Below, one piece after another: positions 2,971 through 32,842 of a stretch of 35,553 nt of DNA. Numbering within the stretch: the stretch's first letter is position 1; each line of letters opens with the position of its first letter. The stretch spans positions 1 to 35,553 of the forward strand of contig JBBRPW010000002.1 of NCBI GenBank assembly GCA_038227435.1, read 5' to 3'. The stretch comes from Minisyncoccia bacterium (GTDB lineage Bacteria; Patescibacteriota; Minisyncoccia; Phycocordibacterales; CALRBL01). The notes below the pieces were generated by a model, which saw only the letters and a program-made list of their open reading frames with translations, did no database searches and was not told the origin of the DNA. The position numbers and the translations under genes were made by a program.

Positions 2971-2995
2971 CACGAAAATACGCTATAATGTAGGC

Positions 2996-3625
2996 ATGAA
3001 TCCTCAAACAAATAGCACTCCTAATATGGGAGGCAACATGGGTAACATGGGTAATATGAATAATGCGGGCAACATGGGAGCAGAGAGCGATCAGTCAGTC
3101 GCAATTAGACGAGTGGTAACCATTGGTGCATTAATGGTTGGTCTCGGAATTATTATTTTAGTCGCTCAAAACTGGGCAAACTTACCAGCTTTTTTTAAGG
3201 TGGTTATTTTAATGGTAAGTATGATAGCAACATACGGAATTGGATATGCACTTCTTCAGTATCCATCGCTTAAAAGTGTAGGACAGGGAGTTGTATTTTT
3301 AGGTGCACTTATATTTGGTGCTAACATTTTTTTAGTAGCTCAAATTTATAATATTCAAGTTGAATGGCCAGACGGCTTTATGATTTGGATGTTTGGCGTA
3401 TTTCTTACTCTGTATGCCGTGCCATTAAAAGCACTTCGAGTACTCGGTGTAATTTTAGCCATCTTAGGATTAGGAGGATATGTATTTGATTTCAGCGGAA
3501 CATTAGTTGGAACTGCATCATATTACACATCAACATTTATTGTGGCTCTCTCAGTAATTACTATGTATGCAGCAGCGCACATTTTCCGAAAGCGATTACC
3601 AGCAGAACCAGTAGATTTCTATTAA
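2996..3625 (+). CDS. DUF2157-domain membrane protein
   Basis: Multi-TM; motifs GIIILVAQNW and GANIFLVAQIYNI...W typical of DUF2157. Confidence 0.8.
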   Translation: MNPQTNSTPNMGGNMGNMGNMNNAGNMGAESDQSVAIRRVVTIGALMVGLGIIILVAQNWANLPAFFKVVILMVSMIATYGIGYALLQYPSLKSVGQGVVFLGALIFGANIFLVAQIYNIQVEWPDGFMIWMFGVFLTLYAVPLKALRVLGVILAILGLGGYVFDFSGTLVGTASYYTSTFIVALSVITMYAAAHIFRKRLPAEPVDFY

Positions 3626-3685
3626 AAGAATTTCATTCTTACTTCTATTTTTACAATTATTTAAACTCTTACTAATTATTATTTT

Positions 3686-4888
3686 ATGAATTTATTTTAC
3701 GGACTTGGATACTTAGGATTTTTATGGCCACTCTTTTTACTAGTCGGTGCCGGTTTTATTGTGGTGCGTTTTGTGATGGCACTTTTTGGTGTTCGAACAA
3801 AAACACAATTTGTTACTGACGAATCGGGAAAAGCAGTTATGGTTGAACCGAAAGTTCGAGGAATTTCAGGACATTTATTTAGATCAAGCAATGATGCTCT
3901 CTATCAAACATATATGTTTTTGGGAACAGCCTTTGTTGGATTATTTCTTTCAACTATTAACCGCTCACTCGGCTACCCACTAGGGTGGGAAACGGTGCAA
4001 CTCTTGCTTACCATTTTTGTTTTAGCTATTGCATATCGATTTAAAGTATTCGTTCTACTTCCTGTTGGAATTGTTGGAATAATTAGTAGCGTATATTGGC
4101 ACATGTACATTTGGACAGGCCAAACTAATACATCAGATATTTTAACTATTGTAAGTCTGGTGCTTCTTTCAGTGCTTATCTATGGAATTGGCCGATTGCA
4201 CGATTCACAATTACTCTGGCGACGATACGGCATGACTTATGTATTTTTTGGATTAATTCCAGTTGGAATATATTTGTTTTTCATGTCATCTGAAACTGGA
4301 ATTGCAAGATTAAATGAAATACTTTCAAATCACCATGTGTTCACATCATTTGGAGCAATGTTTTTAATTGTGCTTATTGCGCTTTTAATTGCCGTTACGT
4401 TTATCTTGGGAGCGATGAAAAAATTAATATCAATATTTGAATTAATTGTTGGATTTCTATTCTCATTTCTTACTCTTCTTTTGCCATTTTTCCCAACACC
4501 ACTTGTAAGTATTGCTGCTCGAAATAATTCTGGATTTACTTCATATATCGTTTCAACACTTAATGCAAATGGATGGATTCTATTTATCATTATGAACATT
4601 CTACTTTTTGGATATTTAGTTGGTTGGATTCTCGTTGGATATTACAAGCGAGAAAGATGGGCTATCAACACAGGTTCAGGACTTTTTGCACTCTTTGTTA
4701 TCATTAAATTCTTTAGCTACGCTCAAAGTTCAGCAGGACAAGCACTTACCTTAATTGTTGCAGGGCTTTTACTAATGATTCTCGGAGTTGGATTAAGCGT
4801 AGGGCGAACAAAATTATTAAAAAAAATGGATGCTGCAACTGGTGGAAATGGAATGGGAACAGCAGGAGGCATTGGAGTAACTCATTAA
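3686..4888 (+). CDS. Polytopic membrane protein (DUF2157/DUF4401-like)
   Basis: 400 aa, about 12 hydrophobic segments; lies between a DUF2157 gene and a GDYXXLXY gene. Confidence 0.7.
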   Translation: MNLFYGLGYLGFLWPLFLLVGAGFIVVRFVMALFGVRTKTQFVTDESGKAVMVEPKVRGISGHLFRSSNDALYQTYMFLGTAFVGLFLSTINRSLGYPLGWETVQLLLTIFVLAIAYRFKVFVLLPVGIVGIISSVYWHMYIWTGQTNTSDILTIVSLVLLSVLIYGIGRLHDSQLLWRRYGMTYVFFGLIPVGIYLFFMSSETGIARLNEILSNHHVFTSFGAMFLIVLIALLIAVTFILGAMKKLISIFELIVGFLFSFLTLLLPFFPTPLVSIAARNNSGFTSYIVSTLNANGWILFIIMNILLFGYLVGWILVGYYKRERWAINTGSGLFALFVIIKFFSYAQSSAGQALTLIVAGLLLMILGVGLSVGRTKLLKKMDAATGGNGMGTAGGIGVTH

Positions 4889-4912
4889 TTATTAATCACT
4901 TTACTAAAATCT

Positions 4913-5578
4913 ATGAATCCAAATAATAATACAAGTATTGGAGAAACGATGTCGAATCAAAGCATGACCGTAAAGTTTTTAATTGCGGTGGTTGCTCAAA
5001 TTATTATTGTTTTTTTGCTCGTTGCATATAACGCGGCAATTGTAACAGGGGGAAAAACACTGTATGTGTCGGTGCTGCCTGTAGATCCAACGGACGTACT
5101 TCGAGGTGACTACGTTGTTACTCGACTTTCAATTTCACAAGCGTACCCTACTCAATTTAATGGAACTCCTCAAAATGGCGAAACCGTATATGTGCCTGTA
5201 AAACAAATTTCATCTGACGAATCATATATTTCTGGAAAAGTGGTGAAATCTGTAAATGATGAGGGAATGGGAATGGATGGATTAGCACACAGTGTGCCAG
5301 ATGGAACAATTTACGTTAAAGGAACGGTGGTTGTTGGCGGAGCGGAGCAAGTTCCAAGTCCGTATGATCAGTATCCAGCATACGACCCATATGGAAGGAA
5401 TGTTCAACCAATTAATTATCAACCCATAACTATTAAATATGGAGTTGAAAATATTTTTGTTGAAAAAGGAAAAGGAAATTTACCTTGGAATAAAAGGGTA
5501 GTTGCTGAACTTAAAGTAGGTAGTGGAGGAGTGGCACGAATTACAAAGTTGTTTGTTGACGGGGTAGAGTGGAAGTAG
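4913..5578 (+). CDS. GDYXXLXY-family membrane-anchored protein
   Basis: N-terminal TM, then PVDPTDVLRGDYVVTRL; C-terminal YGVENIFVEKGKG. Confidence 0.85.
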   Translation: MNPNNNTSIGETMSNQSMTVKFLIAVVAQIIIVFLLVAYNAAIVTGGKTLYVSVLPVDPTDVLRGDYVVTRLSISQAYPTQFNGTPQNGETVYVPVKQISSDESYISGKVVKSVNDEGMGMDGLAHSVPDGTIYVKGTVVVGGAEQVPSPYDQYPAYDPYGRNVQPINYQPITIKYGVENIFVEKGKGNLPWNKRVVAELKVGSGGVARITKLFVDGVEWK

Positions 5579-5602
5579 TTCAGCTTAAAGATTTCATACG
5601 GT

Positions 5603-5630
5603 CAAAAATCTGGCACCCTCCAGATTTTTG
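5603..5630 (+). terminator. Rho-independent terminator (A and T tracts on both sides)
   Basis: CAAAAATCTGG-caccct-CCAGATTTTTG. Confidence 0.7.
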
Positions 5631-5720
5631 TGATACTATCAAAACTCACAAAAAAAGCCGAAAATATTGCATTTTAGGCATGAAATTTTAATAAATAAGT
5701 AATAAATAATCGAGAAATCT

Positions 5721-7142: not shown

Positions 7143-7198
7143 GGAATCTTTATGGTTTCTTAAGGAGAATTTTATCTCTAAGTCGCTATGATATAGTT

Positions 7199-7969
7199 AT
7201 GAATATGACAATAAATACCAAAGGGGTTTATCAAATAAAAGACTCTGATCTATTTTTTGTTGCTAACAATACTGCTCCAGCATCTACTCAAAAGCAATAT
7301 GTTTTAACAATCAAAGATCTTCCAGGAGACGATAAACCGCGTGAAAAACTTTTAGATTCTGGCCCTCATGTATTATCTACTCAAGAACTTCTTGCAATTG
7401 TTTTAACTACAGGAACAAAAAAAGAAGAGTTGTTGAGTATGAGCAAACGTCTCATCAAAGATTATGGCGAAAAAAATATCATGACTGAAACTGATGCAAA
7501 AAAAGTTTCGGTTGAGTACGATATTCCACTAGTAAAAGCTTGCCAAATTGTTGCATGTGCAGAACTTGGAAAACGTTTTTATAAAAAACCCGAAGTAGGC
7601 CTTGCGGTAATTCGAACTCCTAAAGATGTGTTCGATCACGTACGTGATATGAGAGATCTTCCAAAGGAGCATCTCCGAGGTATTTATCTCGATACTCATA
7701 ATAGAGTAATTCACGAAGAGTATATTTCAATTGGAACAATTAATTCAAATATTGTTCATGCACGGGAAGTATTTCGGGCTGCAATTGAATATAATGCGGC
7801 AGCTATTGTATTAGTGCATAATCATCCTTCAGGAATTGTTACTCCAAGTGATGCCGACTTTGCAATTACAAATCAACTCATCGCTGCAGGGCGAATTGTC
7901 GGAATTAATGTACTCGACCACATTATAGTTACTAAAACTGAGTACCAAAGCATCGAGGCAGAATACTAA
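7199..7969 (+). CDS. radC: RadC / UPF0758 JAB-domain protein
   Basis: PREKL...LSTQELLAIVLTTG and JAMM motif HNHPSG...SDAD...LDHIIV. Confidence 0.93.
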   Translation: MNMTINTKGVYQIKDSDLFFVANNTAPASTQKQYVLTIKDLPGDDKPREKLLDSGPHVLSTQELLAIVLTTGTKKEELLSMSKRLIKDYGEKNIMTETDAKKVSVEYDIPLVKACQIVACAELGKRFYKKPEVGLAVIRTPKDVFDHVRDMRDLPKEHLRGIYLDTHNRVIHEEYISIGTINSNIVHAREVFRAAIEYNAAAIVLVHNHPSGIVTPSDADFAITNQLIAAGRIVGINVLDHIIVTKTEYQSIEAEY

Positions 7970-8001
7970 TATCAAAAACTAATCTCTATTTTTATACGTA
8001 T

Positions 8002-8706: not shown

Positions 8707-8800
8707 TTCGATTTTCCGTTTCAATACCAATATGAGTTAGTTAAAGTACCTAGTTCAATTAGGACGTTTTATACACTCAAGGTTATAACCGTGAATCTTT

Positions 8801-10199: not shown

Positions 10200-10202
10200 A
10201 GA

Positions 10203-10232
10203 TTGACAAGTAAACGTACGTTCACCTATACT
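10203..10232 (+). promoter_or_regulatory. lexA operon promoter containing a palindromic operator
   Basis: TTGACA (10203-10208), 18-nt spacer, TATACT (10227-10232). The spacer contains near-palindrome GTAAACGTACGTTCAC (10210-10225). Confidence 0.8.
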
Positions 10233-10238
10233 ATAGAT

Positions 10239-10823
10239 ATGAAAAAGGGAGATCAATATGGAGAGTATAAAAATAACATAGGTCGCTTCTACAGTCGTAA
10301 CCGACGTGTACCTACGTACAGTGAAATTATGGACCTTTGTGGCTTTGCATCTAAAAATGCTGCATCTAAATTGGTGCACAAATTAATTGATGATGGATTC
10401 CTCGATAAAGATGTAACTGGAAAAATTATTCCATCTCAAATTGATTCTCCAATAAAAGTGCTCGGTGTTGTTGAAGCTGGATTCGGCGCTCCTGCTGAAG
10501 AAGAAGTGTTGGATACGTTATCGCTCGACGAATATTTAATTGATAATCGGGAAGCTACGTACATGCTCGAAGTAAAAGGAGATTCAATGATTGATGCGGG
10601 AATTATTGAAGGCGACATGGTCTTGGTTGAGCGAACACAAGATTATCATTTAGGTGATATTGTCATTGCAGAAATTGATGGACGATTTACCATGAAATAT
10701 ATTCGAAAAACAGGAAGTGTAATCTGGCTCGAACCCGCCAACAAAGCCTACAAGCCTTTGTATCCAACTGAAGATTTAAAAGTAGTGGCAGTGGTGAAAG
10801 CGGTCATCCGTAAGTATTCATAA
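10239..10823 (+). CDS. lexA: LexA/UmuD-family S24 self-cleaving repressor (wHTH + peptidase)
   Basis: wHTH PTYSEIMDLCGFAS, Ala80-Gly81 site (VLGVVEAGF), Ser116 (GDSM), Lys153 (TMK). Start reassigned to ATG 10239 because TTG 10203 is the -35 box. Confidence 0.88.
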   Translation: MKKGDQYGEYKNNIGRFYSRNRRVPTYSEIMDLCGFASKNAASKLVHKLIDDGFLDKDVTGKIIPSQIDSPIKVLGVVEAGFGAPAEEEVLDTLSLDEYLIDNREATYMLEVKGDSMIDAGIIEGDMVLVERTQDYHLGDIVIAEIDGRFTMKYIRKTGSVIWLEPANKAYKPLYPTEDLKVVAVVKAVIRKYS

Positions 10824-10830
10824 AATAATA

Positions 10831-12153
10831 ATGGAATTAAAATCCAACCAACAACTGTTGAATGAACAGACGCCTTTAGCTGTGCATTCATATCGAAAAT
10901 GTATTCTCCATGTTGATGGCGATTCTTTTTTTGCATCATGCGAGATTGCTCACAATCCTCAGCTACGAGGGAAGCCTGTGGTGACCGGATGGGAAAGAGG
11001 AATTGCTACCTCACTTACCTACGAAGCAAAAAAATTAGGAGTAGTTAGAGGAATGAAAGTATCAGACATCAAAAAGTTTTTTCCTCAAGTAATTGTCATG
11101 GCCTCTCACTACGAACTTTACTCTCTGTATTCACTTCGAATGTACAGCATTGTTCGTCGGTACACTCCTGATATTGAAGAATTTAGTGTCGATGAATGCT
11201 ATGCAGATTTAACTGGACTTCGTATTGTCCACCACTCTACATACGAAGAAATTGCTTTAAAAATTAAACACGATTTAGAAACCGAACTCGGTATGACATT
11301 TTCAATGGGAATTGGTCCTAATAAAACAATTGCAAAATTAGCCTCGAAATATAAAAAACCATCGGGTTTTACTCCGGTTCCCGCAAAGCGCGTCCATATC
11401 TTTTTAGATGGCATGCCTGTTGAAAAAATTTGTGGAGTAGGTCCAAGCACCACTGCTCAATTTAATAAGTTGGGAATTAAAACAGCTCTTGATTTAGCTA
11501 AAAAAAATATGGCGTGGGTCGATGACAATTTAAGTAAACCCTTTAGAGAAATTTGGGCGGAACTCCACGGTGAATTTATTTTTAAATTAAAAACAGGAAG
11601 TGTGCCCGACTACCAATCGATTATGAAGGCTCATACCTTTATTCCAACTCAAGACAAGGAAGTTGTATTTAGTGAAATATCCCGCCATATTGAATCGTTA
11701 TGTATTCGATTAAGGAAATATAAGTTAGGAACGAGTGTTGTTTGCTTATCAATTAAAACTCAGTCGTTTAGTTACAAAAATGTTGATTTATTATTGCCGC
11801 GTCCTACTGCAGTACCTGAAGAGATTTTGCCTCACTTAAGATTAAAGTTTGATTCCTTGTGGAAAAGTTCAATTCAAGGGAAACATATTATTCGAGCGTC
11901 GAGTATTACCCTGGGACATTTGGTAGACATTACAGCCAGACACGAAGATTTGTTTGGAGCATCAAGTAAAGCGGAAAAATTGTATGACGTGTATTCTGCA
12001 ATTGACTCTTTAGCGGGAAAGTTTGGAAGAGGAACAGTGTTTTTAGGATCGAGCTTTAATGCATCTGAGGCCGCAGTAAAAGATTCAAAAAAGATGGGAA
12101 CGTATCACAAGAAAAGGAATTTAGATATTCCGATATTGGGGTGGGTGAGTTAA
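10831..12153 (+). CDS. Y-family translesion DNA polymerase (DinB/UmuC-like)
   Basis: LHVDGDSFFASCE, YEAKKLGV, SVDECYAD, AKLASKYKKPSG, GVGPST; clamp-binding-like HEDLF; IDSLAGKFG. Confidence 0.93.
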   Translation: MELKSNQQLLNEQTPLAVHSYRKCILHVDGDSFFASCEIAHNPQLRGKPVVTGWERGIATSLTYEAKKLGVVRGMKVSDIKKFFPQVIVMASHYELYSLYSLRMYSIVRRYTPDIEEFSVDECYADLTGLRIVHHSTYEEIALKIKHDLETELGMTFSMGIGPNKTIAKLASKYKKPSGFTPVPAKRVHIFLDGMPVEKICGVGPSTTAQFNKLGIKTALDLAKKNMAWVDDNLSKPFREIWAELHGEFIFKLKTGSVPDYQSIMKAHTFIPTQDKEVVFSEISRHIESLCIRLRKYKLGTSVVCLSIKTQSFSYKNVDLLLPRPTAVPEEILPHLRLKFDSLWKSSIQGKHIIRASSITLGHLVDITARHEDLFGASSKAEKLYDVYSAIDSLAGKFGRGTVFLGSSFNASEAAVKDSKKMGTYHKKRNLDIPILGWVS

Positions 12154-14836: not shown

Positions 14837-17686
14837 ATGAACATAAACATCACCAAGGCAGACGGGTCTAAAATGCCCTTTAATGCCGATCTGATCAACC
14901 GATCAATCGAGAGAGCTTGTTTCGGCTTACCCGACCCTATTTCAATGGTTACTCAAATTGCCACTGAAACCTCTCTTACCTTGTATGATGGAATAACTAC
15001 TGATGAAATTGATCAAGCTACCATTGGCGCTGCCATTCAAAACGTTCGTGAAGACATTAAATACGATAAGGTAGCTACACGAATTCTGCTTAAAACCATA
15101 TACCGCTCGGTAGTGGGTGATTACGACAAAGACAGCCGACAAGATTTAAAGGAAAAGCATAAATTGTCCTTTATAAATTTTGTAAAGGACAATGTGTCCC
15201 TTAAGCGCCTCGATACTCGGATGGAAGAAAAGTTTAATTTGGAAGAATTAGCAAATGCCCTCGACATTGAACGAGATGAATTATTTCAATATGCCGGCCT
15301 CTCAGGTTTCCTAAACAGGTATTCATTAAAGGATCCACATACTCAATCTACAAAAGAAACTCCTCAGTATTTTTTCATGCGCGTAGCCATGGGACTTTCA
15401 TACAACGAAGAAAACCCAACACGGCAAGCCAAACTGTTCTACGACAAAATGAGTAGGTTTGAATATATTGCGGGAGGTTCAACTAACTTAGGCGCCGGAA
15501 CTCCAAAGCCACCACTTTCAAATTGTTTCCTTCTTGAAATTCACGATGACATGGGGCACATTGCAAAATCTGTTTCAGATGTTCTCATGCTTTCAAAAGC
15601 ATCAGGTGGAATTGGTGCATCAATTACAAAACTTCGAGCGGCAGGATCGCCTTTAATGAGTAATAACGGAGTGTCTACTGGGCCTACACCATTTGCAAAA
15701 ATTATTGACACTGCAATTCGAGCCGTACAACGAGGAGGAAAGAAAAAAGGAGCACTGTGTTTTTACATGGAAAACTGGCACGTTGATTTTCCTGAATATA
15801 TTGATTGGCGTCATAATGCGGGCGACGACTACATGCGAATGCGAACAGCAAACACAGCGTGCTTCCTTTCAGATGAATTCATGAACCGCGTACAGAATAA
15901 ACAAATGTGGTACATGTTTGATCCAAAAGAAACTCCTGATTTAAATGAATTATACGGACAAGCTTTTAGTACACGGTACGCTGAATATATTGAAATGTCA
16001 GAAGCGGGAAAACTGCGAACATTTAAAAAAGTTCCCGCTGAAGAACAATACCGAGCTATTTTAAGTTCTCTTCAATCAACATCGCATCCATGGCTTGTAT
16101 GGAAAGACAGTATTAACGTTCGAGCAATCAACAATAATACGGGAACAATTCACATGTCGAACTTGTGTACAGAAATTTGTTTGCCACAAGACATTAACAA
16201 CATTGCAGTATGTAACTTAGGGTCTATTAATGTTTCAGCACACATTCTTAAAAAAGAAGTGAATTGGTCACGACTTGAAGAATCAGTTCGATTAGCGGTA
16301 AGGCAACTCGATAACTTAATTGATATCAACACCCTTCCTGTAATTGAGGCACAACGATCAGATCAAGAAAACCGTGCGGTAGGACTTGGAATTATGGGAT
16401 TGGCCGACACTTTTGAACAATTAGGAATTGCATATGACACCGAGCATGCCTACGACTTTACCGACCGTCTCTGTGAATTTATTAGCTACATGGCCATCGA
16501 TGAAAGTGCAAACTTGGCTCAAATACGAGGATCATATAAAAACTTTGAAGGGTCACGATGGTCAAAAGGAATGGTTCCGGTAGACACAATTGCAGAACTT
16601 GAAAAGGAGCGAGGAATGCCTGTAACCGTAGATAAATCAAGTAAACATAAAGGACTAAACTGGGATTTGCTCCGAGCTAAAGTGAAAAAGGGAATGCGAA
16701 ATGCAACTCTTATGGCGATTGCACCGAATGCAAACATCGGTTTGCTCGTTGGAACAACTCCTGGAATTGATCCACGATTCGCTCAAGTATTTTCACGAAG
16801 TAAATTCTCTGGAAAATATTTAGACGTAAATCATAACTTAGTAAAAGATTTAAAAAATATGGGATTGTGGGAAAAAGTTAAAGAATTAATTATTGAAAAA
16901 CAAGGAGACATTTCAGACATTGCTGGAATTCCTGAACACCTTAAAGCAATTTATAAAACATCGTTTAATACATCTCCATACGGATTCATCGAAGTAGCGG
17001 CACGTGCACAAAAGTGGATTGATCAAGCCATCTCACGAAATATGTATTTAGATACACGTGACATGGACGATATCATGAAGATTTATTTATCTGCATGGCA
17101 AAAAGGATTGAAGTCTACGTATTACTTGCACATGAAGCCACGTCACACCGCAGAGCAGAGTACAACAAGTGTAAACAAAGCCGAGCAATTTGGTAAAAAG
17201 GGAATTGGAGCATTTGCATCAACAAGAACAACAATGCCTCCGGCCGAAGTTTCAGTGCCCTCATCAATTCAACAACAAGATTTACCACAGCCGGTAATGG
17301 TGCCAGTACAGAAACCTCTAGAAGAGCAAGCGTACGATCAGCCTAAAAGTGTTGGAAAAGGTGCAGGATTTGGAGCCGTAATGACAGCTCCACAATCAAG
17401 CGTTGTTGAACCAAGTATGCCGGTTACAAATGCAAGTGTTGTGGCAGGTGCTGGGCCATTTGCTCAGGTACAAGGGGCAACAACTGAAACATTATTTACT
17501 CAGCCCGAACCCATTGCCCCTGTAATGCAATCAGTGGCGAATGCTGGCTCAGCTCAACCAATTCAATCTGTTCCAGTTGCAGTAGCTCAATCACAAACAA
17601 ATTCAGGCGCAGTAAATAAACCGAAATACAATTTACTTCCGCAAACCGATCCTGCCCTCGAAAACCAGTGCGATAGTTGTCAATAA
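14837..17686 (+). CDS. nrdA: Class I ribonucleotide reductase alpha subunit with N-terminal ATP-cone
   Basis: ITKADG cone, SNCFL, SNLCTEI, AVCNLGS, AIAPNANI, GLKSTYY, C-terminal CDSCQ. Confidence 0.96.
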   Translation: MNINITKADGSKMPFNADLINRSIERACFGLPDPISMVTQIATETSLTLYDGITTDEIDQATIGAAIQNVREDIKYDKVATRILLKTIYRSVVGDYDKDSRQDLKEKHKLSFINFVKDNVSLKRLDTRMEEKFNLEELANALDIERDELFQYAGLSGFLNRYSLKDPHTQSTKETPQYFFMRVAMGLSYNEENPTRQAKLFYDKMSRFEYIAGGSTNLGAGTPKPPLSNCFLLEIHDDMGHIAKSVSDVLMLSKASGGIGASITKLRAAGSPLMSNNGVSTGPTPFAKIIDTAIRAVQRGGKKKGALCFYMENWHVDFPEYIDWRHNAGDDYMRMRTANTACFLSDEFMNRVQNKQMWYMFDPKETPDLNELYGQAFSTRYAEYIEMSEAGKLRTFKKVPAEEQYRAILSSLQSTSHPWLVWKDSINVRAINNNTGTIHMSNLCTEICLPQDINNIAVCNLGSINVSAHILKKEVNWSRLEESVRLAVRQLDNLIDINTLPVIEAQRSDQENRAVGLGIMGLADTFEQLGIAYDTEHAYDFTDRLCEFISYMAIDESANLAQIRGSYKNFEGSRWSKGMVPVDTIAELEKERGMPVTVDKSSKHKGLNWDLLRAKVKKGMRNATLMAIAPNANIGLLVGTTPGIDPRFAQVFSRSKFSGKYLDVNHNLVKDLKNMGLWEKVKELIIEKQGDISDIAGIPEHLKAIYKTSFNTSPYGFIEVAARAQKWIDQAISRNMYLDTRDMDDIMKIYLSAWQKGLKSTYYLHMKPRHTAEQSTTSVNKAEQFGKKGIGAFASTRTTMPPAEVSVPSSIQQQDLPQPVMVPVQKPLEEQAYDQPKSVGKGAGFGAVMTAPQSSVVEPSMPVTNASVVAGAGPFAQVQGATTETLFTQPEPIAPVMQSVANAGSAQPIQSVPVAVAQSQTNSGAVNKPKYNLLPQTDPALENQCDSCQ

Positions 17687-18819: not shown

Positions 18820-18870
18820 TACATTTAGCTCAAAACTAATTTCTCGGCACTCAATTCCTCACTTTAATTT

Positions 18871-19425: not shown

Positions 19426-19481
19426 AATTTAGATCAATTTTATCTGACTTTGTTTTTTAAAAATTTCTGGTACGGTTAAAT

Positions 19482-20015
19482 ATGGCTAAAATATCTTTAT
19501 TTGGATGGGCAGGAACGGGTACCTCGAGTTTGGCAAAATCATTAAGTTCTCAACTCGGAATCACCTCGCTTTCAGCGGGAAATTTTTTTAGATCAATTGC
19601 TGATAAGCAAGGAATTAATCTACTTGATTTAGAGGAGCATGCAAAACTCGACACAACAATTGACGTCAGGGTTGAAGAAATGATTAAGGAATTCTCAAAA
19701 AATAATACAGACTTTGTAATCGAAGGACGTCTTTGTTGGTTTTCAGTACCCGACTCATTTAAAATTAAATTAACTTGTAATGATGAAGAACGGATTCGAA
19801 GAGTGTCAGTACGAGAAGGAAAAACCAAGGAATTAGTAGAACACGAAACAAAAACAAGAGAAAAATTGGCTATTTCGCGCTATTTTGAAATTTTTGGCAT
19901 CGAAAAAGTTGATGATGATATTCATTTTGATGCAATCTTAGATACTACCTCAATGAATGTACATGAAATGACCGAGCGGGTGATCGATATATTGAAACAT
20001 AAAAGAGTGATATAA
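19482..20015 (+). CDS. Cytidylate kinase-like protein (short, archaeal-type)
   Basis: P-loop GWAGTGTSS, SAGNFFR, VIEGRL, RIRRVSVRE, RYFEIFGI, LDTT. Confidence 0.78.
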   Translation: MAKISLFGWAGTGTSSLAKSLSSQLGITSLSAGNFFRSIADKQGINLLDLEEHAKLDTTIDVRVEEMIKEFSKNNTDFVIEGRLCWFSVPDSFKIKLTCNDEERIRRVSVREGKTKELVEHETKTREKLAISRYFEIFGIEKVDDDIHFDAILDTTSMNVHEMTERVIDILKHKRVI

Positions 20016-20025
20016 TTTCCTCATA

Positions 20026-21153
20026 ATGCGTGGTGATCTCTCATACAATCAAAAAAATAAAAGGCCAAAATCTGCCTTGTTTAAGAATGCTCGAAAATCG
20101 TTTCAAAAATATTTTATTCCACACGAAGGGAATAATCATCACCCTCATATTTTAAGGCAAGCGGCTTTTTCAGGCTTCGCTTTTTTAATTATGCTTGTGT
20201 TTGCATTTAGTACCTTTCAAGTTTTAATTTTCAAAAAAACTAATTTAACTGCTTTTATTTTTCCTGAGGTCTTAACTCAAATGTTAAATCAAGACCGGTC
20301 TCAAAATAATTTAAATACACTTACGGTAAATCAAACGCTTGTTCGCGTAGCTCAGGCCAAAGCAAATGACATGGCCAAGTATGGATATTTTGCCCACGTA
20401 AGCCCTGAGGGAAAAGAGCCGTGGTATTGGTTTGATCAAGAGGGATATAGTTATAAATATGCTGGGGAAAACTTAGCGGTAGATTTTACCGATTCAATTG
20501 ATGTAAACCAAGCATGGCTCAATTCGCCAACCCATCGAGCTAACTTACTTAATACTAAATTTACTGAAGTGGGGGTAGCAATGGCTAAAGGAATATATAA
20601 TGGTAGAGAAACTATTTTTATTGCGCAAGAATTTGGTGCACCAAAAAATGTTGATATAACTACTGCGGCACCAGTAGCTGAATCAGCAACAACGCAACCT
20701 ACCGAACCTGTACAAGACGCTGCATATATACCTCAGCCACAAAAAACAGTAGTAGCCACAGCACCAAATCAAAATTCAGTTAATTCAAGTGGAAACAAGA
20801 TAAACCCAGCTGTTAAAGGAGTCGAAGTTAACAATCAAGTGGTGACCAATAAAACAAACACTAAGCCGGTTGTATATACAGAAAACAAAACTGCTACTTC
20901 TTCACAAATAGAAGAAAGTGGAATAATTACAAAAGCAGAGCGAATCGCTACCAACCCAAAACGAATGATGGCGCTCGCCTACAGTTTAATAGGGGGCTTA
21001 ATTCTATTTGCCCTCATATTATTATTCGGAGTTGAGCGACACCGACACCATCACTCAATGTATGTGTACGGATTAATGCTTCTCCTTCTAATGTTTTCAC
21101 TTCTTATTTTCTTCCAATCATTTATCGCTACTTCAGGAAGTATTGCCGGATAA
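20026..21153 (+). CDS. CAP (SCP) domain membrane protein
   Basis: KANDMAKYGYFAHVSP, AGENLA, WLNSPTHRANLL; N- and C-terminal TM segments. Confidence 0.9.
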   Translation: MRGDLSYNQKNKRPKSALFKNARKSFQKYFIPHEGNNHHPHILRQAAFSGFAFLIMLVFAFSTFQVLIFKKTNLTAFIFPEVLTQMLNQDRSQNNLNTLTVNQTLVRVAQAKANDMAKYGYFAHVSPEGKEPWYWFDQEGYSYKYAGENLAVDFTDSIDVNQAWLNSPTHRANLLNTKFTEVGVAMAKGIYNGRETIFIAQEFGAPKNVDITTAAPVAESATTQPTEPVQDAAYIPQPQKTVVATAPNQNSVNSSGNKINPAVKGVEVNNQVVTNKTNTKPVVYTENKTATSSQIEESGIITKAERIATNPKRMMALAYSLIGGLILFALILLFGVERHRHHHSMYVYGLMLLLLMFSLLIFFQSFIATSGSIAG

Positions 21154-21189
21154 TTTAGCGCTCGTAGGCTTTACTGCTATAATTTATAT

Positions 21190-21525
21190 ATGAATAATTT
21201 AATCCACGCCGATTTGTTTTTTTTCGTTACAACTATTGTGGTAATTGTTGTCGGTCTATTAATCGCTGTTCTTATTGTGTATGTTCTCATTATTCTTAAT
21301 AATCTGAAAAAACTTTCAGAGCGCCTTAAGAAAGAGGGAATTGAAATTGTGGATGAATTTAGTGAATGGCGTGAACGAGTATCAGAGGTTGGAAGAAATG
21401 GCTTTGGAATCGGATCTGCCATCGCTTTCTTTTCAAACTTATTCAAAGGAAAAGTAAGGCCAAAACCACTTCATAAAAAGAATAAAGTAGTTATTGAAGA
21501 TGAAGACAACAGCGGTAATGAATAG
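21190..21525 (+). CDS. Hypothetical membrane protein
   Basis: Long N-terminal TM plus coiled-coil-like segment; -10 box directly upstream. Confidence 0.75.
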   Translation: MNNLIHADLFFFVTTIVVIVVGLLIAVLIVYVLIILNNLKKLSERLKKEGIEIVDEFSEWRERVSEVGRNGFGIGSAIAFFSNLFKGKVRPKPLHKKNKVVIEDEDNSGNE

Positions 21526-23820: not shown

Positions 23821-24999
23821 CTAACAAACGTTTGAAGTATTTGAATACACAATATTCTTAGCCAAAATAATTCCACTAATTAATAGCGCTGCCGCTACAA
23901 AAAATAAATATGGAAGTGTGGTGTAGCTTAATATAATTGCACCAAGGAGTGGTCCGATTACAAACGCAAACGGATGAGAGAGACGCCAAAACTCAATTAC
24001 CTGACTATTGGTGTCGTCAATCTGTTTGAAAAAATAACTTTCAGTTCCAACTTCAACAAAACTTGCTCCCATTCGTAATACAAATAATGTGACTGCCCAA
24101 AGTAGAATTGTGGGCGCCGTAACAAAAGGAATTGCTAAAAAAGAGAAAAACATAATCCAAAGCCCTCCTCGAATAATATTTTTTTCGGCATTAAACATAT
24201 CGGCAAATTTTCCAAGTGGTGATTGAAAAAGGATAAATGAAACTAGAGAAAAGGCGATTGCAATTGATGCATCTTTAATAGTCATACCAAGGACTGAGCT
24301 CAAATAGAGTGGAACGTACACAATCATAAATGTGTATGAAAGTTGTAGTAAAAATGATGCAACAAACACTGATCGTATCTTTTTATTGTGAATAAGTTCA
24401 CGAGCAAGTACACCTGTTTTAACTTGCTTATATACACTGTCTTTGAATCCTCTAAAAAAGACTACATTAACAATTACTAAAGAAAGCATAAAGGCTGCCG
24501 AAAGTAGGTAGGGCGCCATATACACCTGTTGTGCGTTCACAGATACAACAATGAGAGACCCTGATGCCAGTGCAGCAACAGGGGCACATGCATTAAAGAT
24601 CATTAAAAAGAGACCTCGAATAGAACCTGTTTTTGCTCGCTCACTCCAATGCTCTAAATAAATATCGAATGATAGAAAGAAAAGAGGAATGAGTGCGTGA
24701 CGAATAATGAATACCGCGCCAATGAGATATGGATTAGAAGACAATGCCATTACAATTAATGTGAAAAACTCTAAAATTGCACACCACAAAAATAACTTAT
24801 TGTTTCCAACTTTTTGAAGTAGAGGATTGATCGTTAGGAATGCAATAATAGTGAGGATCGATCCGACCGAATAGAGTAAGCTAATTGTAGTATTGCTGAA
24901 GTATTGAAGAAGAAAACTAGAACTAATATATGTAGTGAGGAAGTAGTGTAGGGAAAAAAGAATTGTCGCGCCGTATACGATCGAAAGATTTTTATTCAT
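23821..24999 (-). CDS. MFS transporter
   Basis: About 12 TM segments; GKFADMF motif-A-like; 392 aa. Confidence 0.88.
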   Translation of the reverse strand: MNKNLSIVYGATILFSLHYFLTTYISSSFLLQYFSNTTISLLYSVGSILTIIAFLTINPLLQKVGNNKLFLWCAILEFFTLIVMALSSNPYLIGAVFIIRHALIPLFFLSFDIYLEHWSERAKTGSIRGLFLMIFNACAPVAALASGSLIVVSVNAQQVYMAPYLLSAAFMLSLVIVNVVFFRGFKDSVYKQVKTGVLARELIHNKKIRSVFVASFLLQLSYTFMIVYVPLYLSSVLGMTIKDASIAIAFSLVSFILFQSPLGKFADMFNAEKNIIRGGLWIMFFSFLAIPFVTAPTILLWAVTLFVLRMGASFVEVGTESYFFKQIDDTNSQVIEFWRLSHPFAFVIGPLLGAIILSYTTLPYLFFVAAALLISGIILAKNIVYSNTSNVC

Positions 25000-25020
25000 T
25001 CAACCAGTATAACGTAAAAT

Positions 25021-27123
25021 CTATACAGTTCTAATAACCGTAATAATAATCGGCTTCTTTGCAGTTTCTTGGAATAGGAATCGTCCAACTTCATCGTTTA
25101 CAATATTTTTTACGTAGTCGAAATTAATGTTGTTTCCATCATTGTCAGTTCGCACTTGTGCGCCTGGGCGGGGAGCGGCATTAAGATTAATATTTCGTTC
25201 AATTGATCGTTTAATAATAAATCGAACTTCTCGCAAAATGTCTTGTGATTCTTGTAAGTACACAGATCCTCTTGAAATAATGTCAGGCGATTGTCGAATC
25301 TTTCCAGTTTTCTGATCAAGCAAAGCAAAGATTACAAAGATTCCGTCTTGGCTCAAAATTTGTCGATCTCGCATCACTACTTCTTGAATGTCTCCCACAG
25401 TAAAACCGTCTACAGTAACTGCAGCTGATGGAGCCTTTTCTTTAAGCACTACCATCTTCTTTCCTTCATCTTGAATTTCAATAATAGTTCCGTCATCTGG
25501 TACTACAATGTTCTCTTCTTTCATTCCTAAGTCCATTGCAAGTTGAGCATGGAGTTTTAGCATGTAGTGAGATCCGTGAATTGGAATAAAGAATTTAGGT
25601 TTAATTTTTCGGTGGAGCCATTCAATTTCACCTCGGTTTCCGTGACCTGTTGAGTGAATGTATACATCTGACGTTCGATATTCAATAATCTTGGCTCCTT
25701 GGCGCGACAAATTATCTTTCAATTTCTGCACCGCTTTTTCATTTCCAGGAATAATTGATGATGAAAGAAGCACTGTGTCTCGTGGAGTTAGTTGTAAGTA
25801 TTTGTAATTCTTAACTGACATTCGGCTAAGCGCCGCAAATTCATCTCCTTGAGCACCTGTAGCAATAACTACAATTTTATCAGGCGCATATTTATCCATG
25901 TCGCGTGCATCAATAATCGTGTCTTTCTTTACATTCAAAAGACCAGCGAGTGTGGCAATTTCCACATTTGTTTTCATTGTTCGTCCTTCAACCACGACTT
26001 TCTTTCCGTACTTCTCCGCACTCATAATCATATTAATGATTCGCTCAAGTTGTGAAGCAAACAATCCAACAATTAATCGTCCTTTAATTGATTTGATAAT
26101 TTCATCAAGGTTTTCATGTACTAATCGTTCAGGAGTTGAAAATCCAGGGTTGGCAACGTTTGTAGAATCGGAAAGCATACAAAGCACATTCATAGTGTCG
26201 AACACCTTATATTCTTTTTCTTCTCGCTCAGATGGAATTCCATCAGTGTGCTCAAGTTTATAATCTCCAGGAGTTACAACGGCTCCGTATGGAGTTTCAA
26301 TAATAATTCCCATTGAATCTGGAATCGTATGTGTTACTCCAAAAAACGACACAATTAAGTTTCCAATTTTTAGTTTTTCATTTTTCTCTACAATTTTATA
26401 GTCAACAGGGGGAAGATGAGGAAATTCTGTTTGTCGTTTCTTAATCATTAATGCCGAAAGATTTCGAGTGTAGAGTGGTGGGTTTCCAATTCGATCCATA
26501 ATGAAGGGAAGTCCTCCAATGTGGTCGAGGTGGGCGTGCGTAATGATCATAGCTCGAACACGATCTTTTCGATCTTCTAAATATCGAGTGTTAGGTAAAA
26601 TATAATCGATACCCGGTGTCCCTTCTTCTTTAAATTGAAAACCAGCGTCGATTACAATAATGTCATCACCAATTTCAATGGCAGTCATGTTTTTTCCAAT
26701 TTCCTCTACTCCTCCAAGTGGAATGATTCGAATGTTTTGTCCTACGAGTGGAATTTCATTCTCTCGTTTTGTAAGAGGTTGAGATGTTGAAGGTCGAATA
26801 CGTCTGTGTTCCGGGCGCTTCATTCGTGAGATTGGTCGGTTTCGACTCCGTGCGCGTACAGGAGCACCTGTTCCGGGGCCAGCTGGTGCTGCCGTTGGAG
26901 CTCCAGGAGCGGCTGTTGTTGTGGCAGCAGGCATGGCTGGAGCGGCATCTACTGCGGCCACACTTCCACGACTTTGATGTGGATATGAAGATTTTCTAAA
27001 GCTTCCTTCAGTTCCGAGCATGTCGGTTGCGGCATGTACTCCGGTACTTCTCGTATTTTTTGGGTCGGGAGTAAGGGCTGCAACAACTGCTCCTAATGGT
27101 GATTTGTTTTCTGATGTGTTCAT
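25021..27123 (-). CDS. rnj: Ribonuclease J with N-terminal disordered extension
   Basis: IPLGGVEEIGKNM, THAHLDHIGG, HTIPDS, GDYK, ATGAQG, HSTGH, PIHG. Confidence 0.96.
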   Translation of the reverse strand: MNTSENKSPLGAVVAALTPDPKNTRSTGVHAATDMLGTEGSFRKSSYPHQSRGSVAAVDAAPAMPAATTTAAPGAPTAAPAGPGTGAPVRARSRNRPISRMKRPEHRRIRPSTSQPLTKRENEIPLVGQNIRIIPLGGVEEIGKNMTAIEIGDDIIVIDAGFQFKEEGTPGIDYILPNTRYLEDRKDRVRAMIITHAHLDHIGGLPFIMDRIGNPPLYTRNLSALMIKKRQTEFPHLPPVDYKIVEKNEKLKIGNLIVSFFGVTHTIPDSMGIIIETPYGAVVTPGDYKLEHTDGIPSEREEKEYKVFDTMNVLCMLSDSTNVANPGFSTPERLVHENLDEIIKSIKGRLIVGLFASQLERIINMIMSAEKYGKKVVVEGRTMKTNVEIATLAGLLNVKKDTIIDARDMDKYAPDKIVVIATGAQGDEFAALSRMSVKNYKYLQLTPRDTVLLSSSIIPGNEKAVQKLKDNLSRQGAKIIEYRTSDVYIHSTGHGNRGEIEWLHRKIKPKFFIPIHGSHYMLKLHAQLAMDLGMKEENIVVPDDGTIIEIQDEGKKMVVLKEKAPSAAVTVDGFTVGDIQEVVMRDRQILSQDGIFVIFALLDQKTGKIRQSPDIISRGSVYLQESQDILREVRFIIKRSIERNINLNAAPRPGAQVRTDNDGNNINFDYVKNIVNDEVGRFLFQETAKKPIIITVIRTV

Positions 27124-27192
27124 ATATGTATTTGATAATAATGTTAATTAATAATTTTTTATAATTTATATTTGATTTCTAATATGTAAATT

Positions 27193-28992: not shown

Positions 28993-29052
28993 GGTGCGAG
29001 AAGGGCCAAGCCCTCAAAATTAGAATATATTATATATAGAACGAGCTTAGTA

Positions 29053-29292
29053 TTAAGCAACGAGCGTAAGAATGGTAGTAGCGATAAATAAAATCGATAT
29101 AACAATAGTAAAACTGAAGAGGAATTTATCAAACCCTCGACGTGTATTGTAAGTAGATCCTAAATCCGCACCTCCAAAAGTGCTTCCTAAACTGGCTTCA
29201 GAACGCTGTAAAACAACGCCTAAAATCATAAGAACGGCTAAAATAATCTCTATATATGGGAGAAACCTTGATAATGATGTGACGAATGTCAT
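29053..29292 (-). CDS. secG: Preprotein translocase subunit SecG
   Basis: VVLQRSEASLGSTFGG...TRRGFDKFL, two TM segments. Start reassigned to ATG 29292, downstream of TTGACT/TATTAT. Confidence 0.9.
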   Translation of the reverse strand: MTFVTSLSRFLPYIEIILAVLMILGVVLQRSEASLGSTFGGADLGSTYNTRRGFDKFLFSFTIVISILFIATTILTLVA

Positions 29293-29403
29293 TTCCACAA
29301 TAATAGCCAAGATTTCGTGGAAGTCAATCTAACCTTGTAGAAGAATTAATAATGTAAAAAAGCGTTTTATTGTTTTTGTAGCCATTTAATCTATACTACT
29401 CAT

Positions 29404-30033
29404 ATGCAAAAAGGATTAATTATCACATTGGTTATTATTGTTATTTTAGGATTATTCGCTGCAAGTTCATACAATGGACTCTTAGCCAAGAGTCAGGCGG
29501 TAGACGCTTCATGGGGAGCTGTGCAAACTGATTATCAACGTCGATCAGATCTTGTTCCAAACCTTGTAAGTACCGTAAAAGGTGCTGCTGGTTTTGAACA
29601 ACAAACATTAGTGGCAGTTGTTGATGCTCGTGCAAAAGCAACGAGTGTAAACTTTAATGCATCAGATGCGACTCCTGAAAATATTGCTAAGTTTCAAGCA
29701 GCACAAGGGCAATTATCAGGAGCACTTAGTAGATTGTTAGTTGTTTCTGAAAATTACCCACAACTAAGAGCAACAGAGGCGTTTGCTAACTTACAATCTC
29801 AACTTGAAGGAACAGAAAATCGAATTGCAACTTCAAGAAAAGATTTTAACAACACAGTACAACCTTACAACATTGCAGTTAAAGGATTTCCAGGAATAAT
29901 TTTCGCAAAAATATTTGGATTTCAAGAACGAGGATATTTCGCAGCAGACGCAGCCGCACAAACTGTACCTAAAGTAGATTTCGGAACAGGAGTTCAAGGA
30001 GGAACACAACAAAAACCAGTTTTGGTTCAGTAA
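29404..30033 (+). CDS. lemA: LemA family protein
   Basis: YQRRSDLVPNLVSTVKG, ENYPQLRA, LEGTENRI, FPGIIFA. Confidence 0.95.
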   Translation: MQKGLIITLVIIVILGLFAASSYNGLLAKSQAVDASWGAVQTDYQRRSDLVPNLVSTVKGAAGFEQQTLVAVVDARAKATSVNFNASDATPENIAKFQAAQGQLSGALSRLLVVSENYPQLRATEAFANLQSQLEGTENRIATSRKDFNNTVQPYNIAVKGFPGIIFAKIFGFQERGYFAADAAAQTVPKVDFGTGVQGGTQQKPVLVQ

Positions 30034-30049
30034 TTAATTAACGTAAGGA

Positions 30050-31024: not shown

Positions 31025-31099
31025 TTACTATTTCTTAGACACGGAGACTAAGCAAAAACCTGTGGAGATGTTGGGTGTTGTCTGTGGTATAATTTTTAT

Positions 31100-31621
31100 A
31101 TGAATCACGAAGATCCAATGAAAGAAACACGGGCGCACTTTGGAAAACATGAAGGTGCTGGAGAGAACAATGGAAAACTTCTTGATACGCTAGATAAGAT
31201 TCACGACTCCTTAGGATCACCTGAAGCTGAGAAAAAAGACGAAGCTCTAATTGCGTTCTCTAAGGTAATGGTCGAGCAAAAAGATTTTGCTCTTACAATT
31301 ATTTATGCAGATGAACAAACAAGAAAAAGTAAGGAATTTACCGATCTCTTATCTGATCCTGTTTTTAGCCGAATGCTTGACCTATATCCAATAATTAACA
31401 GCTCCGTATTTGACGATCCAATGTTTCATCCTGGTAGAAATATGAGCGATGACGTAGAGCTTGTTGCCGATTTAAATCAATCATCGGGCGCAGAGGCCTT
31501 GGCAAGAATTACTGAACATGAAAATGCATTAAATACATATAGCCGAATGCTTACTGCATATGGCGTGTTCGGAGAAGTGGGATTAGGCGAGGCTTCAGTT
31601 TCTAAACAGGACCTGAAATAG
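31100..31621 (+). CDS. Hypothetical acidic protein
   Basis: 173-aa ORF with an extended -10 box 6 nt before ATG. Confidence 0.7.
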   Translation: MNHEDPMKETRAHFGKHEGAGENNGKLLDTLDKIHDSLGSPEAEKKDEALIAFSKVMVEQKDFALTIIYADEQTRKSKEFTDLLSDPVFSRMLDLYPIINSSVFDDPMFHPGRNMSDDVELVADLNQSSGAEALARITEHENALNTYSRMLTAYGVFGEVGLGEASVSKQDLK

Positions 31622-31741
31622 CAATATTCTCTTTTTTATTTTTCAAATAAAATTGCAATAACAGGAAGGGTGTGAATTTTTGTATTGCTATCACTAAAAT
31701 AATAACCATTGCTTTCTGCGGATAAGTGCTATGCTATTAGT

Positions 31742-32407
31742 ATGAAAAACAAACAACGTGGATCAACGGGCATCATAATTGCCATTATTGTCGCAGTTAT
31801 ATTAATTGGGGCAGGTTTTTACTTCGCAAATCGAAATAGTAGTGAAGTAGGTACAAATGAGTACAACAACACACCAGGTACAACAAGTAATACTAATACA
31901 GGCGGAAATACAGGAGGAACATACAACTCAAATACAGGCGGAAATACTGGATCAACTGGAAATACAAATACTGGTGGAACTATAAAAGGTGGAACAGGAA
32001 GTACAACAGTTGCAGCAACAACAACGATCGACGTATCAGGAACTTGGAAAACATATACCGACCGAAATAATCTATTCACAGTAGATTATCCAGGAGTTTG
32101 GGCTGCACCAAAAACAGTAACATTGGGAGATCAATATGTTGTTGATTTTGGAAATACAGTAAAAGTTTCTACTGGAACATATTACGGACAATCAATTGAT
32201 AAAAACATGACATTGGCGCAGCTTGTAGAAAATGTGAAAGTAAAATCAACTATAACAGTAAGTAATCGGTCAGGATTCCGAGTAGGAAATACCGTATATC
32301 TTCCACTTAAAGTTAATGATCCAACTCAAATCATGAGTATCACACGAGGTAATTTAGACGAAGCAACATTTATTAAGCTTCTAGCAACAGTAAAGATTAA
32401 GCAATAA
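31742..32407 (+). CDS. Surface/exported protein: prepilin-like leader, Gly/Asn/Thr linker, PsbP-like C-terminal domain
   Basis: MKNKQRG-STGIIIAIIVAVILIG, NTGG repeats, WKTYTD...FTVDYP. Start reassigned to ATG 31742. Confidence 0.7.
   Translation: MKNKQRGSTGIIIAIIVAVILIGAGFYFANRNSSEVGTNEYNNTPGTTSNTNTGGNTGGTYNSNTGGNTGSTGNTNTGGTIKGGTGSTTVAATTTIDVSGTWKTYTDRNNLFTVDYPGVWAAPKTVTLGDQYVVDFGNTVKVSTGTYYGQSIDKNMTLAQLVENVKVKSTITVSNRSGFRVGNTVYLPLKVNDPTQIMSITRGNLDEATFIKLLATVKIKQ
31895..31947 (+). repeat. 17-bp direct repeat encoding NTGGNT units
   Basis: AATACAGGCGGAAATAC at 31895-31911 and 31931-31947 (36-bp period). Confidence 0.8.
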
Positions 32408-32460
32408 TAAACTTGCGATAAAGATTACGTAAAGTAATCATTAAGTATTTTTGCAAAATA

Positions 32461-32489
32461 AAAAACTGTCTCACTTGAGGCAGTTTTTT
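32461..32489. terminator. Bidirectional terminator between convergent genes
   Basis: AAAAACTGTCTC-actt-GAGGCAGTTTTT. Confidence 0.8.
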
Positions 32490-32513
32490 GTTTTCAATAA
32501 AATGCTCAGGTCC

Positions 32514-32795
32514 TTAAGACTTAAGGAATTTTTTTCTTTGCTCTGTATATTTCCACCAAGGTTTTGCAGGTGCACCATTCATAAAGTCGATTGCAGCCAA
32601 AAAAGTATCAATCACACATGGATCGTGTATAAAGCCTGTAATTTTGCATAATTTTCTATGAAGACTGTATCCATTTTTATTTTTTAATTGGAGCGGGGTT
32701 TTAATTCCAAGTAATTCAAAATCTTTTACCATGGCTGGGCCTATATTGGGGATATCAGTAAATTTTTTAACTGCATCTGCATGTTTTGCTTTCAT
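32514..32795 (-). CDS. Cdd1-like helix-hairpin-helix protein
   Basis: DIPNIGPAM HhH, HDPCVIDTF, PWWKYT. Confidence 0.82.
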   Translation of the reverse strand: MKAKHADAVKKFTDIPNIGPAMVKDFELLGIKTPLQLKNKNGYSLHRKLCKITGFIHDPCVIDTFLAAIDFMNGAPAKPWWKYTEQRKKFLKS

Positions 32796-32842
32796 CTAAT
32801 AATTATATGACAGATATCACTATGTAGTACAATGGTTTTCTA

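Follow-up and report, generated by a model that had tools for sequence, protein, structure and literature searches.

The DNA analyzed here, a 35,553-nucleotide (nt) window at positions 1 to 35,553 of contig JBBRPW010000002.1 of a Minisyncoccia bacterium (GenBank assembly GCA_038227435.1), carries the 3′ half of a 16S rRNA gene at its start, a tRNA-Ile gene, and 31 called protein genes. Nine of these genes open with the same arrangement, a TAnnnT hexamer (the box), exactly 6 nt, and an ATG. An initial annotation of the window had read the hexamers as promoter −10 boxes that start transcription on the A of the ATG, giving mRNAs without a leader. All nine lie precisely where it placed them (box at −12 to −7), TG extensions precede the boxes of the genes starting at 21190, 31100, and 31742 as claimed, and the frequency of 9 in 31 compares with 4.2% expected (p = 3.6e-6). 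The window corresponds to contig C2 of the genome (622 kb in 42 contigs, 36.7% GC, 90.6% complete). Its 16S tail past helix 45 reads GGATTAATTCAAAG, compared with the usual GGATCACCTCC, and like Paceibacteria-type 16S rRNAs that lack an anti-Shine–Dalgarno (anti-SD) sequence, the tail GGATTAATTC is without CCTCC. There was no match to the ribosomal protein uL1 family (PF00687) in the 90.6% of the genome that is represented, and RpoA is 55 to 59% identical to that of three metagenome-assembled genomes (MAGs) titled Kaiserbacteria, Paceibacteria, and Parcubacteria, compared with 41% to Lysobacter. Both traits, a 16S end without CCTCCT and a missing uL1, are those of the ribosomes of anti-SD-less Parcubacteria (Tsurumaki et al. 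2022, PMC9297842). We infer that the host, an ultra-small bacterium, is a Paceibacteria (Parcubacteria) member of that group.

To place the box relative to starts genome-wide, genes were called from codon statistics, blind to upstream motifs, with the first ATG as start (500 genes of at least 80 amino acids, 487 usable starts). The histogram peaked as the initial annotation had anticipated, at exactly −12, with TAnnnT before 115 of 487 starts against a flank mean of 20.5 and a highest flank value of 33 (p = 1e-51). The TG-extended form, TGnTAnnnT, stood at a spacer of 6 nt before 53 of 487 starts, against a background of 1.8, and internal ATGs (n = 1826) showed no TAnnnT peak. In a test independent of gene calls, 27 of 91 TGnTA[TC]A[AC]T sites had an ATG opening at least 80 codons after exactly 6 nt, compared with at most 5 ATGs at each of the other spacings from 0 to 20; GTG and TTG starts gave no peak, and none occurred at spacer 6 in this test. 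The positive control, Deinococcus radiodurans MP1, had 6 of 113 starts against 0.7 (strict TG pattern, 1 against 0). Chance might be invoked to explain the peak, since in this 36.7% GC genome the upstream regions are ~71% AT, the TAnnnT background is ~4% per position, and stop codons of upstream genes could furnish the TA. However, 1000 shuffles of −30 to −1 gave a mean of 23.7 and a maximum of 39 at −12, a stop codon supplied the TA of only 1 of 115 boxes, and no peak arose in the AT-rich, Shine–Dalgarno (SD)-using negative control, Lactobacillus salivarius pMP118 (32% GC; 220 of 242 kb; 2 of 163 starts against a background of 7.3), or in Escherichia coli (9 at spacer 6 against 17 at spacer 10). 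We therefore rejected the stop-codon origin and, given also the shuffled runs of the mixture model described below, give chance a negligible probability. We conclude that the TAnnnT–6 nt–ATG signal is confirmed as real and very strong.

The box has the character of an extended −10 promoter element, in which TG stands one base before the hexamer and the −35 box is weak or absent. TG occupied −15/−14 in 53 of 115 box genes compared with 9 of 372 others, and box genes showed no −35 peak, a −35-like word being present in only 4 of 115. RpoD, the sigma factor encoded on contig C17, can be aligned with SigA proteins of solved structure (E = 1e-96), and its region 4 and the region 3.0 sequence PVHMVETI are intact; the H and E of this sequence are the residues that read the TG. 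Among 40 strong boxes lying 12 to 140 nt from an ATG, position +7 was a purine in 30, against a background of 53% (p = 0.004), as expected of a start site and independently of the ATG; the pyrimidine–purine signal at these boxes was weaker and had a second peak. The start ~7 nt past the box that the initial annotation assumed agrees with published bacterial start sites, which center 7 bp after the −10 box (PMC12641261).

Orthologous loci point in the same direction. For lemA, of 53 matching loci 30 were fetched and 2 without an ATG were dropped; six of the 28 loci left, the query among them, had the box at −12, and in 11 of 27 orthologs a TG-extended box lay 24 to 61 nt upstream, a shift as for a promoter gaining or losing a leader. 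Among LexA/UmuD-like loci (25 examined, 3 dropped), the box was at −12 in 8 of 22 (query and a paralog included), several homologs sharing TTGACA and a GAAC-N4-GTTC palindrome, the latter at the place of the query palindrome between the −35 and −10 boxes and resembling the Bacillus-type SOS box. Homologs of Cdd1 carried the box at −12 in 4 of 9 loci titled as candidate phyla radiation (CPR) compared with 0 of 5 others. Boxes upstream of tRNA genes were loose matches at scattered distances (9 of 29, with no background computed).

SD-led initiation leaves no signal at the starts of this genome: SD cores preceded 12 of 487 starts compared with 23 in a control stretch, and 11 of 372 non-box starts. 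Genes for bS1, IF2, and IF3 are present, and bS21 gave a weak match below the cut-off. The first 40 nt (+1 to +40) of box genes have a fold energy of −2.2 kcal/mol compared with −4.7 kcal/mol at internal ATGs, leadered genes being equally weak, and from −25 to +25 the non-box (leadered) genes average −2.8 compared with −6.3 kcal/mol at internal ATGs; the non-box genes thus likely use accessible A/U-rich leaders. We propose that the boxes are −10 elements of the housekeeping sigma factor, mostly extended TGnTATAAT without a −35, from which RNA polymerase would start 7 nt past the box, on the A of the AUG, and that the ribosome would initiate at the 5′-AUG of the resulting leaderless mRNA by the 70S/IF2 route, while the remaining genes, ribosomal-protein genes included, would depend on SD-free, unstructured A/U-rich leaders. 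The leaderless route is known to favor AUG and to be weakened by added leader bases (PMC8459731). It is in our judgment very probable that sigma-70 extended −10 promoters start on the A of the AUG and yield leaderless mRNAs for ~20 to 28% of genes, a reading well supported by the position of the box, its linkage to the TG extension, its exclusivity for ATG, the controls, and the orthologs.

The estimate of that share varies with the method. The plain excess over background at spacer 6 equals 19.6% of genes. A mixture model, whose learned matrix was TnTGnTATAAT, assigned 24% of genes to spacer 6 (share 0.24; 0.21 to 0.26 in 8 bootstraps and 0.00 to 0.05 in 4 shuffles), 28% to spacers 6 and 7, and 35% to spacers 5 to 9, with ~117 genes at spacer 6, 20 at 7, and 2 at 5. 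The last figure is the least secure because the 4 shuffled runs reach 8 to 20% over spacers 5 to 9, compared with 0 to 5% at spacer 6 and 4 to 7% at 6 and 7. We thus estimate that ~20 to 28% of genes, about one in four or five, are likely leaderless. At spacers 6 and 7 the share was 42% of 108 divergent genes; among same-strand genes, it was 26% of 198 with a gap of at least 40 nt, 27% of 104 with 10 to 39 nt, and 17% of 46 with less than 10 nt. The proposal that a large share of first genes is leaderless therefore stands for ~26 to 42% of likely first genes, judged by promoter geometry, and does not extend to a majority. In 9 of 33 divergent pairs less than 200 nt apart, both genes score as box-led. 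Some such pairs are separated by only 18 to 47 nt (32795(−)/32843(+) in the window, 2556/2601 on contig C31, and 12807/12826 on contig C17) and would form very compact back-to-back promoters.

The two gene classes appear to differ in function. We scanned 182 high-confidence genes from ~350 kb (51 box-led, 131 not), each divergent or with a gap of at least 25 nt. The box-led set included RNase Y, RecJ, ExoIII, UvrB, SMC, DnaX, ThyA, FtsH, TrxB, Ddl, Fba, transketolase, AspS, and Def, with 28 of 51 lacking a hit, while the non-box class held all 16 identified ribosomal proteins, EF-G, EF-Ts, IF2, IF3, RpoA/B/C, NusA/B/G, and DnaK. Ribosomal-protein genes made up 0 of 51 box-led and 16 of 131 non-box genes (p = 0.007, which is overstated because many share operons). 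In the S10/spc ribosomal-protein cluster on contig C1, many genes lie at least 25 nt from the upstream gene; these gaps may be spacers serving SD-free initiation.

Two other readings accept the signal and assign it differently. The box could act in translation, as a non-SD ribosome-binding motif within leadered mRNAs, of the GeneMarkS-2 group B or A-rich Bacteroidota type, that has replaced SD/anti-SD pairing; its distance to the ATG is fixed at a spacing typical of ribosome-binding sites, the anti-SD is lost with bS1 present, and the box is also seen at some closely spaced genes (27 of 150 with gaps below 40 nt). We nevertheless regard this as highly improbable, since the learned matrix is the complete extended −10 consensus, TG included, the same box recurs further upstream with a purine at +7 and shifts among lemA orthologs, TTGACA accompanies it at the LexA-like gene, internal genes carry it less often and none of the 16 identified ribosomal-protein genes does, and it is widespread among genomes that keep the anti-SD. 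Group B motifs, moreover, precede all genes (PMC6028130), and the box does not precede first and internal genes alike.

Alternatively, the boxes may be real promoters whose mRNAs are mostly leadered, because transcription starts a few bases upstream or because stronger upstream promoters or read-through dominate. A shoulder at spacers 7 to 9 (~52 of 487 genes by the model) is in keeping with this, as are the −10-to-start distances in TM7x, which are variable and derived indirectly from RNA-seq (PMC12641261), and the position of several of the nine box genes in the window 21 to 56 nt behind a same-strand gene, which makes them starts within an operon or of monocistronic units and not evident heads of operons. 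However, a one-base peak at spacer 6 would be hard to maintain unless the start site is the A, short leaders already reduce leaderless initiation (PMC8459731), and pairs set back to back at 18 to 47 nt leave little room for leaders; we judge this alternative improbable. Several points do weigh against the leaderless interpretation. Calling starts at the first ATG means that genes below 80 amino acids and true GTG or TTG starts are missed or misplaced; the 17% of tightly packed genes that are box-led may often be transcribed by read-through from upstream; a pyrimidine–purine step was nearly as frequent at +9/+10 (15) as at +6/+7 (16) of the 40 distant boxes; a pyrimidine preceded the ATG in 102 of 135 box genes and 187 of 253 others, so that a YRY start element does not discriminate here; and the count of upstream lemA boxes has no shuffle control.

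The initial annotation had also called the leaderless pattern consistent with loss of the anti-SD. To relate the two, TGNTAHANT-N6-ATG was counted against the N10 equivalent across the phylum (151 genomes) and the class (141 genomes), and 16S tails were read. In the phylum set, 99 genomes had a 16S end; excluding 10 whose tails were lost or variant left 89 with intact CCTCC. In the class set, 98 genomes had a match, 3 chance matches were dropped, and 51 were anti-SD-less, 13 partial, and 31 intact. Of the 151 phylum genomes, 122 had more sites at spacer 6 than at spacer 10 (3243 against 1508 sites), as did 67 of the 89 with an intact anti-SD (ratio 2.08). Direct analysis of ~200 kb from each of eight genomes found the TAnnnT peak at −12 in all eight, with excesses of 9% and 9% where the anti-SD is lost and 5, 7, 11, 24, 13, and 4% where it is intact; one intact genome (G064, 24.1%) thus surpasses the 19.6% of the host. 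Five named MAGs, two of them Saccharibacteria, had 20, 30, 29, 28, and 48 sites at spacer 6 compared with 4, 12, 6, 15, and 7. Low survey counts do not show absence because the strict TG pattern misses sites where GC is high; one genome (G042) gave 2 against 1 with it although plain TAnnnT peaked there. The geometry is not universal, as 14 of 82 families had a spacer-10 count equal to or above that at spacer 6. Notable among these is f14 of the phylum sample (G007, G035, G060, G084, G107, and G128), in which the spacing is reversed (75 at spacer 6 against 117 at spacer 10). Its six 16S tails include three that depart from CCTCC, and the family may instead rely on promoters with short leaders.

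That leaderless genes arose from, or compensate for, anti-SD loss draws on differences within the class, where the spacer-6/spacer-10 ratio was 2.72 in anti-SD-less (n = 51), 2.99 in partial (n = 13), and 1.69 in intact genomes (n = 31), the median excess was 17.0 per Mb in anti-SD-less compared with 7.1 in intact genomes (p = 0.0003 by genome), and the host ranks 2nd of 151 phylum and 3rd of 141 class genomes. Yet by family, in a test that is not corrected for phylogeny and in which the two groups share no family, the difference falls to p = 0.03 for the excess and p = 0.15 for the ratio; the intact genomes G064, G147, and G028 reach 24%, 13%, and 11%, compared with 9% in the two anti-SD-less ones; and the excess in 67 of 89 intact genomes contradicts the strong form, in which loss is required. 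We thus reject anti-SD loss as a prerequisite and consider its causal role unlikely: the host does lack the anti-SD, as the annotation held, but this is not the explanation. The class shows no more than a quantitative association, weaker when families rather than genomes are counted. The leaderless geometry appears, from these surveys, to be phylum-wide and independent of anti-SD loss, and may have permitted it. More tentatively, and with less than even probability in our view, the leaderless route could be ancestral in Patescibacteria, could have made SD pairing dispensable, and could have let Paceibacteria lose the anti-SD, leaving anti-SD-less lineages with two SD-free tracks, in which 5′-AUG initiation would serve genes of repair, metabolism, and the envelope, and unstructured A/U leaders would serve those of translation and transcription; such a split could permit translation-level switching of whole gene classes.

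Among the closest known systems are the genomes of GeneMarkS-2 group C (Actinobacteria, Deinococcus-Thermus; Lomsadze et al. 2018), in which a Pribnow box lies 6 to 8 nt before first-gene starts (PMC6028130) and a mean of 31% of genes and 37% of first genes are leaderless (PMC6028130 Table S4). The host resembles them in box position, first-gene enrichment, and share, and also in AUG preference and a weakly structured 5′ end. However, group C genomes probably use ribosome-binding sites for their other genes (PMC6028130), whereas here the remaining genes are not SD-led, SD cores fall short of the background level, and the anti-SD has been lost. The parts of Table S4 examined, which list one of five "unclassified Bacteria" unnamed, name no CPR taxon. 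In Deinococcus, the 5′ end of 47% of mRNAs coincides with the start codon, with no conserved −35 (de Groot 2014, PMC4007540), and a "−10 motif next to ORF", TAnnnT by the start codon of ~30% of open reading frames (ORFs), has experimentally shown promoter activity (PMC4007540; PMC12340547). The host shares the placement of TAnnnT and the lack of a conserved −35. Deinococcus differs in keeping SD-led genes (62% of leadered mRNAs) and in using AUG or GUG where the host peak is confined to ATG; the TG extension is frequent in the host (46%), and no CarD-family match was found in its 90.6% complete genome. For the non-box genes the likely analogue is Bacteroidota (group B), with no SD and A/U-rich, weakly folded starts, but most Bacteroidota keep the anti-SD (PMC7797042) that the host lacks.

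In the literature searched, which did not cover subscription papers, we found no report of leaderless mRNAs in CPR bacteria. The pattern is not described in the accessible parts of PMC12641178, PMC6851277, PMC10783764, and PMC12647753, a term search of the TM7x transcriptome preprint returned no leaderless terms, and the text of the phylum survey in PMC12340547 available to us does not mention Patescibacteria. The main text of the CPR ribosome paper (PMC9297842), as far as consulted, does not contain the word "leaderless" and leaves the mode of initiation unstated; unlike the subgroup trait described there, the leaderless geometry extends beyond that subgroup. The mechanism, known from Deinococcus and Actinobacteria and to that extent only moderately surprising, has apparently not been reported for this phylum. 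It suggests how ribosomes that lack an anti-SD find many of their start codons, which that paper left open, and would extend leaderless expression to a phylum that is very large and mostly uncultured. It also offers a rule for start-site annotation in CPR genomes (TGnTATAAT, 6 nt, ATG) and, for cultured Saccharibacteria, the design of a minimal promoter.

Table 1. Box-led starts, near-misses, and the 16S tail in the window.
Feature	Position	Strand	Remark
16S rRNA 3′ tail after helix 45, GGATTAATTCAAAG	757..770	+	without CCTCC anti-SD
TATAAT + 6 nt + ATG, DUF2157 membrane protein gene	2984..2998	+	directly past tRNA-Ile (2898-2970)
TATGAT + 6 nt + ATG, radC	7187..7201	+	
LexA/UmuD-like S24 gene, full promoter through ATG 10239	10203..10241	+	TTGACA 10203-10208, TATACT 10227-10232, 6 nt
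AAAC-N4-GTTC palindrome of the same gene	10212-10223	+	in the 18-nt −35/−10 spacer
TGcTATAAT + 6 nt + ATG, 111-aa protein	21175..21192	+	no Pfam match
TATACT + 6 nt + ATG, MFS transporter gene	24997..25011	−	21 nt after RNase J gene
TATACT + 6 nt + ATG, lemA	29392..29406	+	
TGgTATAAT + 6 nt + ATG, 173-aa protein	31085..31102	+	no Pfam match
TGcTATGCT + 6 nt + ATG, 221-aa protein	31727..31744	+	no Pfam match; ORF track start TTG 31709
TATAAT + 6 nt + ATG, Cdd1-family gene	32793..32807	−	back-to-back (47 nt) with ABC-F gene at 32843
Near-miss TATTAT + 7 nt + ATG, secG (start 29292)	29290..29305	−	predicted leader 0-1 nt
Near-miss TGaTATAAT + 9 nt + ATG, CAP-domain gene	20008..20028	+	predicted leader 2-3 nt; box overlaps upstream gene end
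Near-miss TACAAT + 9 nt + ATG, ABC-F gene (start 32843)	32828..32845	+	
Doubtful near-miss TACGGT + 5 nt + ATG, cytidylate-kinase-like gene (start 19482)	19471..19484	+	model posterior 0.49

The coordinates of these features are collected in Table 1. Of the four near-misses proposed initially, those at 29292, 20026, and 32843 have good boxes, while that at 19482 is a poor match. Three starts in the ORF track would change. Moving the LexA/UmuD-like gene from TTG 10203 to ATG 10239 is backed by orthologs: homolog starts lie mostly 1 to 6 codons inside that of the query, which leaves the longer start unsupported, and TTG 10203 is itself the first bases of the TTGACA −35 box. Moving secG from TTG 29310 to ATG 29292 is compatible with its Pfam match. 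The box rule would also move TTG 31709 to ATG 31742, where the protein belongs to no family.

Several further features were observed. The LexA/UmuD-like S24 gene is followed by a Y-family polymerase gene (10203-12153, +), and the palindrome between its −35 and −10 boxes reads AAAC-GTAC-GTTC; the pair is likely an autoregulated, leaderless mutagenesis cassette. Outside their Pfam domains, RNase J (25021-27123, −) is extended at its N terminus by ~125 residues of low complexity, and the large subunit of ribonucleotide reductase (14837-17686, +) at its C terminus by ~170 residues rich in Pro, Gln, and Ala. In the 16S alignment, a 61-nt stretch near position 346 stands against 2 model positions. 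Downstream of the 16S gene (771-2830) there is no 23S gene; instead, ~2 kb of ORFs precede tRNA-Ile, of which 1517-1945 (−) and 2338-2733 (+) have no Pfam matches, and the first 2 kb of the window are 52% GC.

Finally, an element, GCTGT[TC]TTGGTAG, occurs in nine copies in the genome, one of them in the window (2825-2855, +), 64 nt before the tRNA-Ile gene at 2898, with further copies on contigs C6, C7, C12, and C29. Seven of the nine lie 24 to 132 nt upstream of a tRNA gene called by ARAGORN; in four, the preceding 9 bases are the exact 5′ end of that tRNA, with the CAGT-type bases of the D-arm replaced by GTTT or GTCT. Most copies fold as a small hairpin. The element was found in 9 of 40 relatives, and all five copies fetched lay ~35 to 70 nt before a tRNA gene on the same strand; it looks like an echo of the tRNA 5′ half or a leader element.

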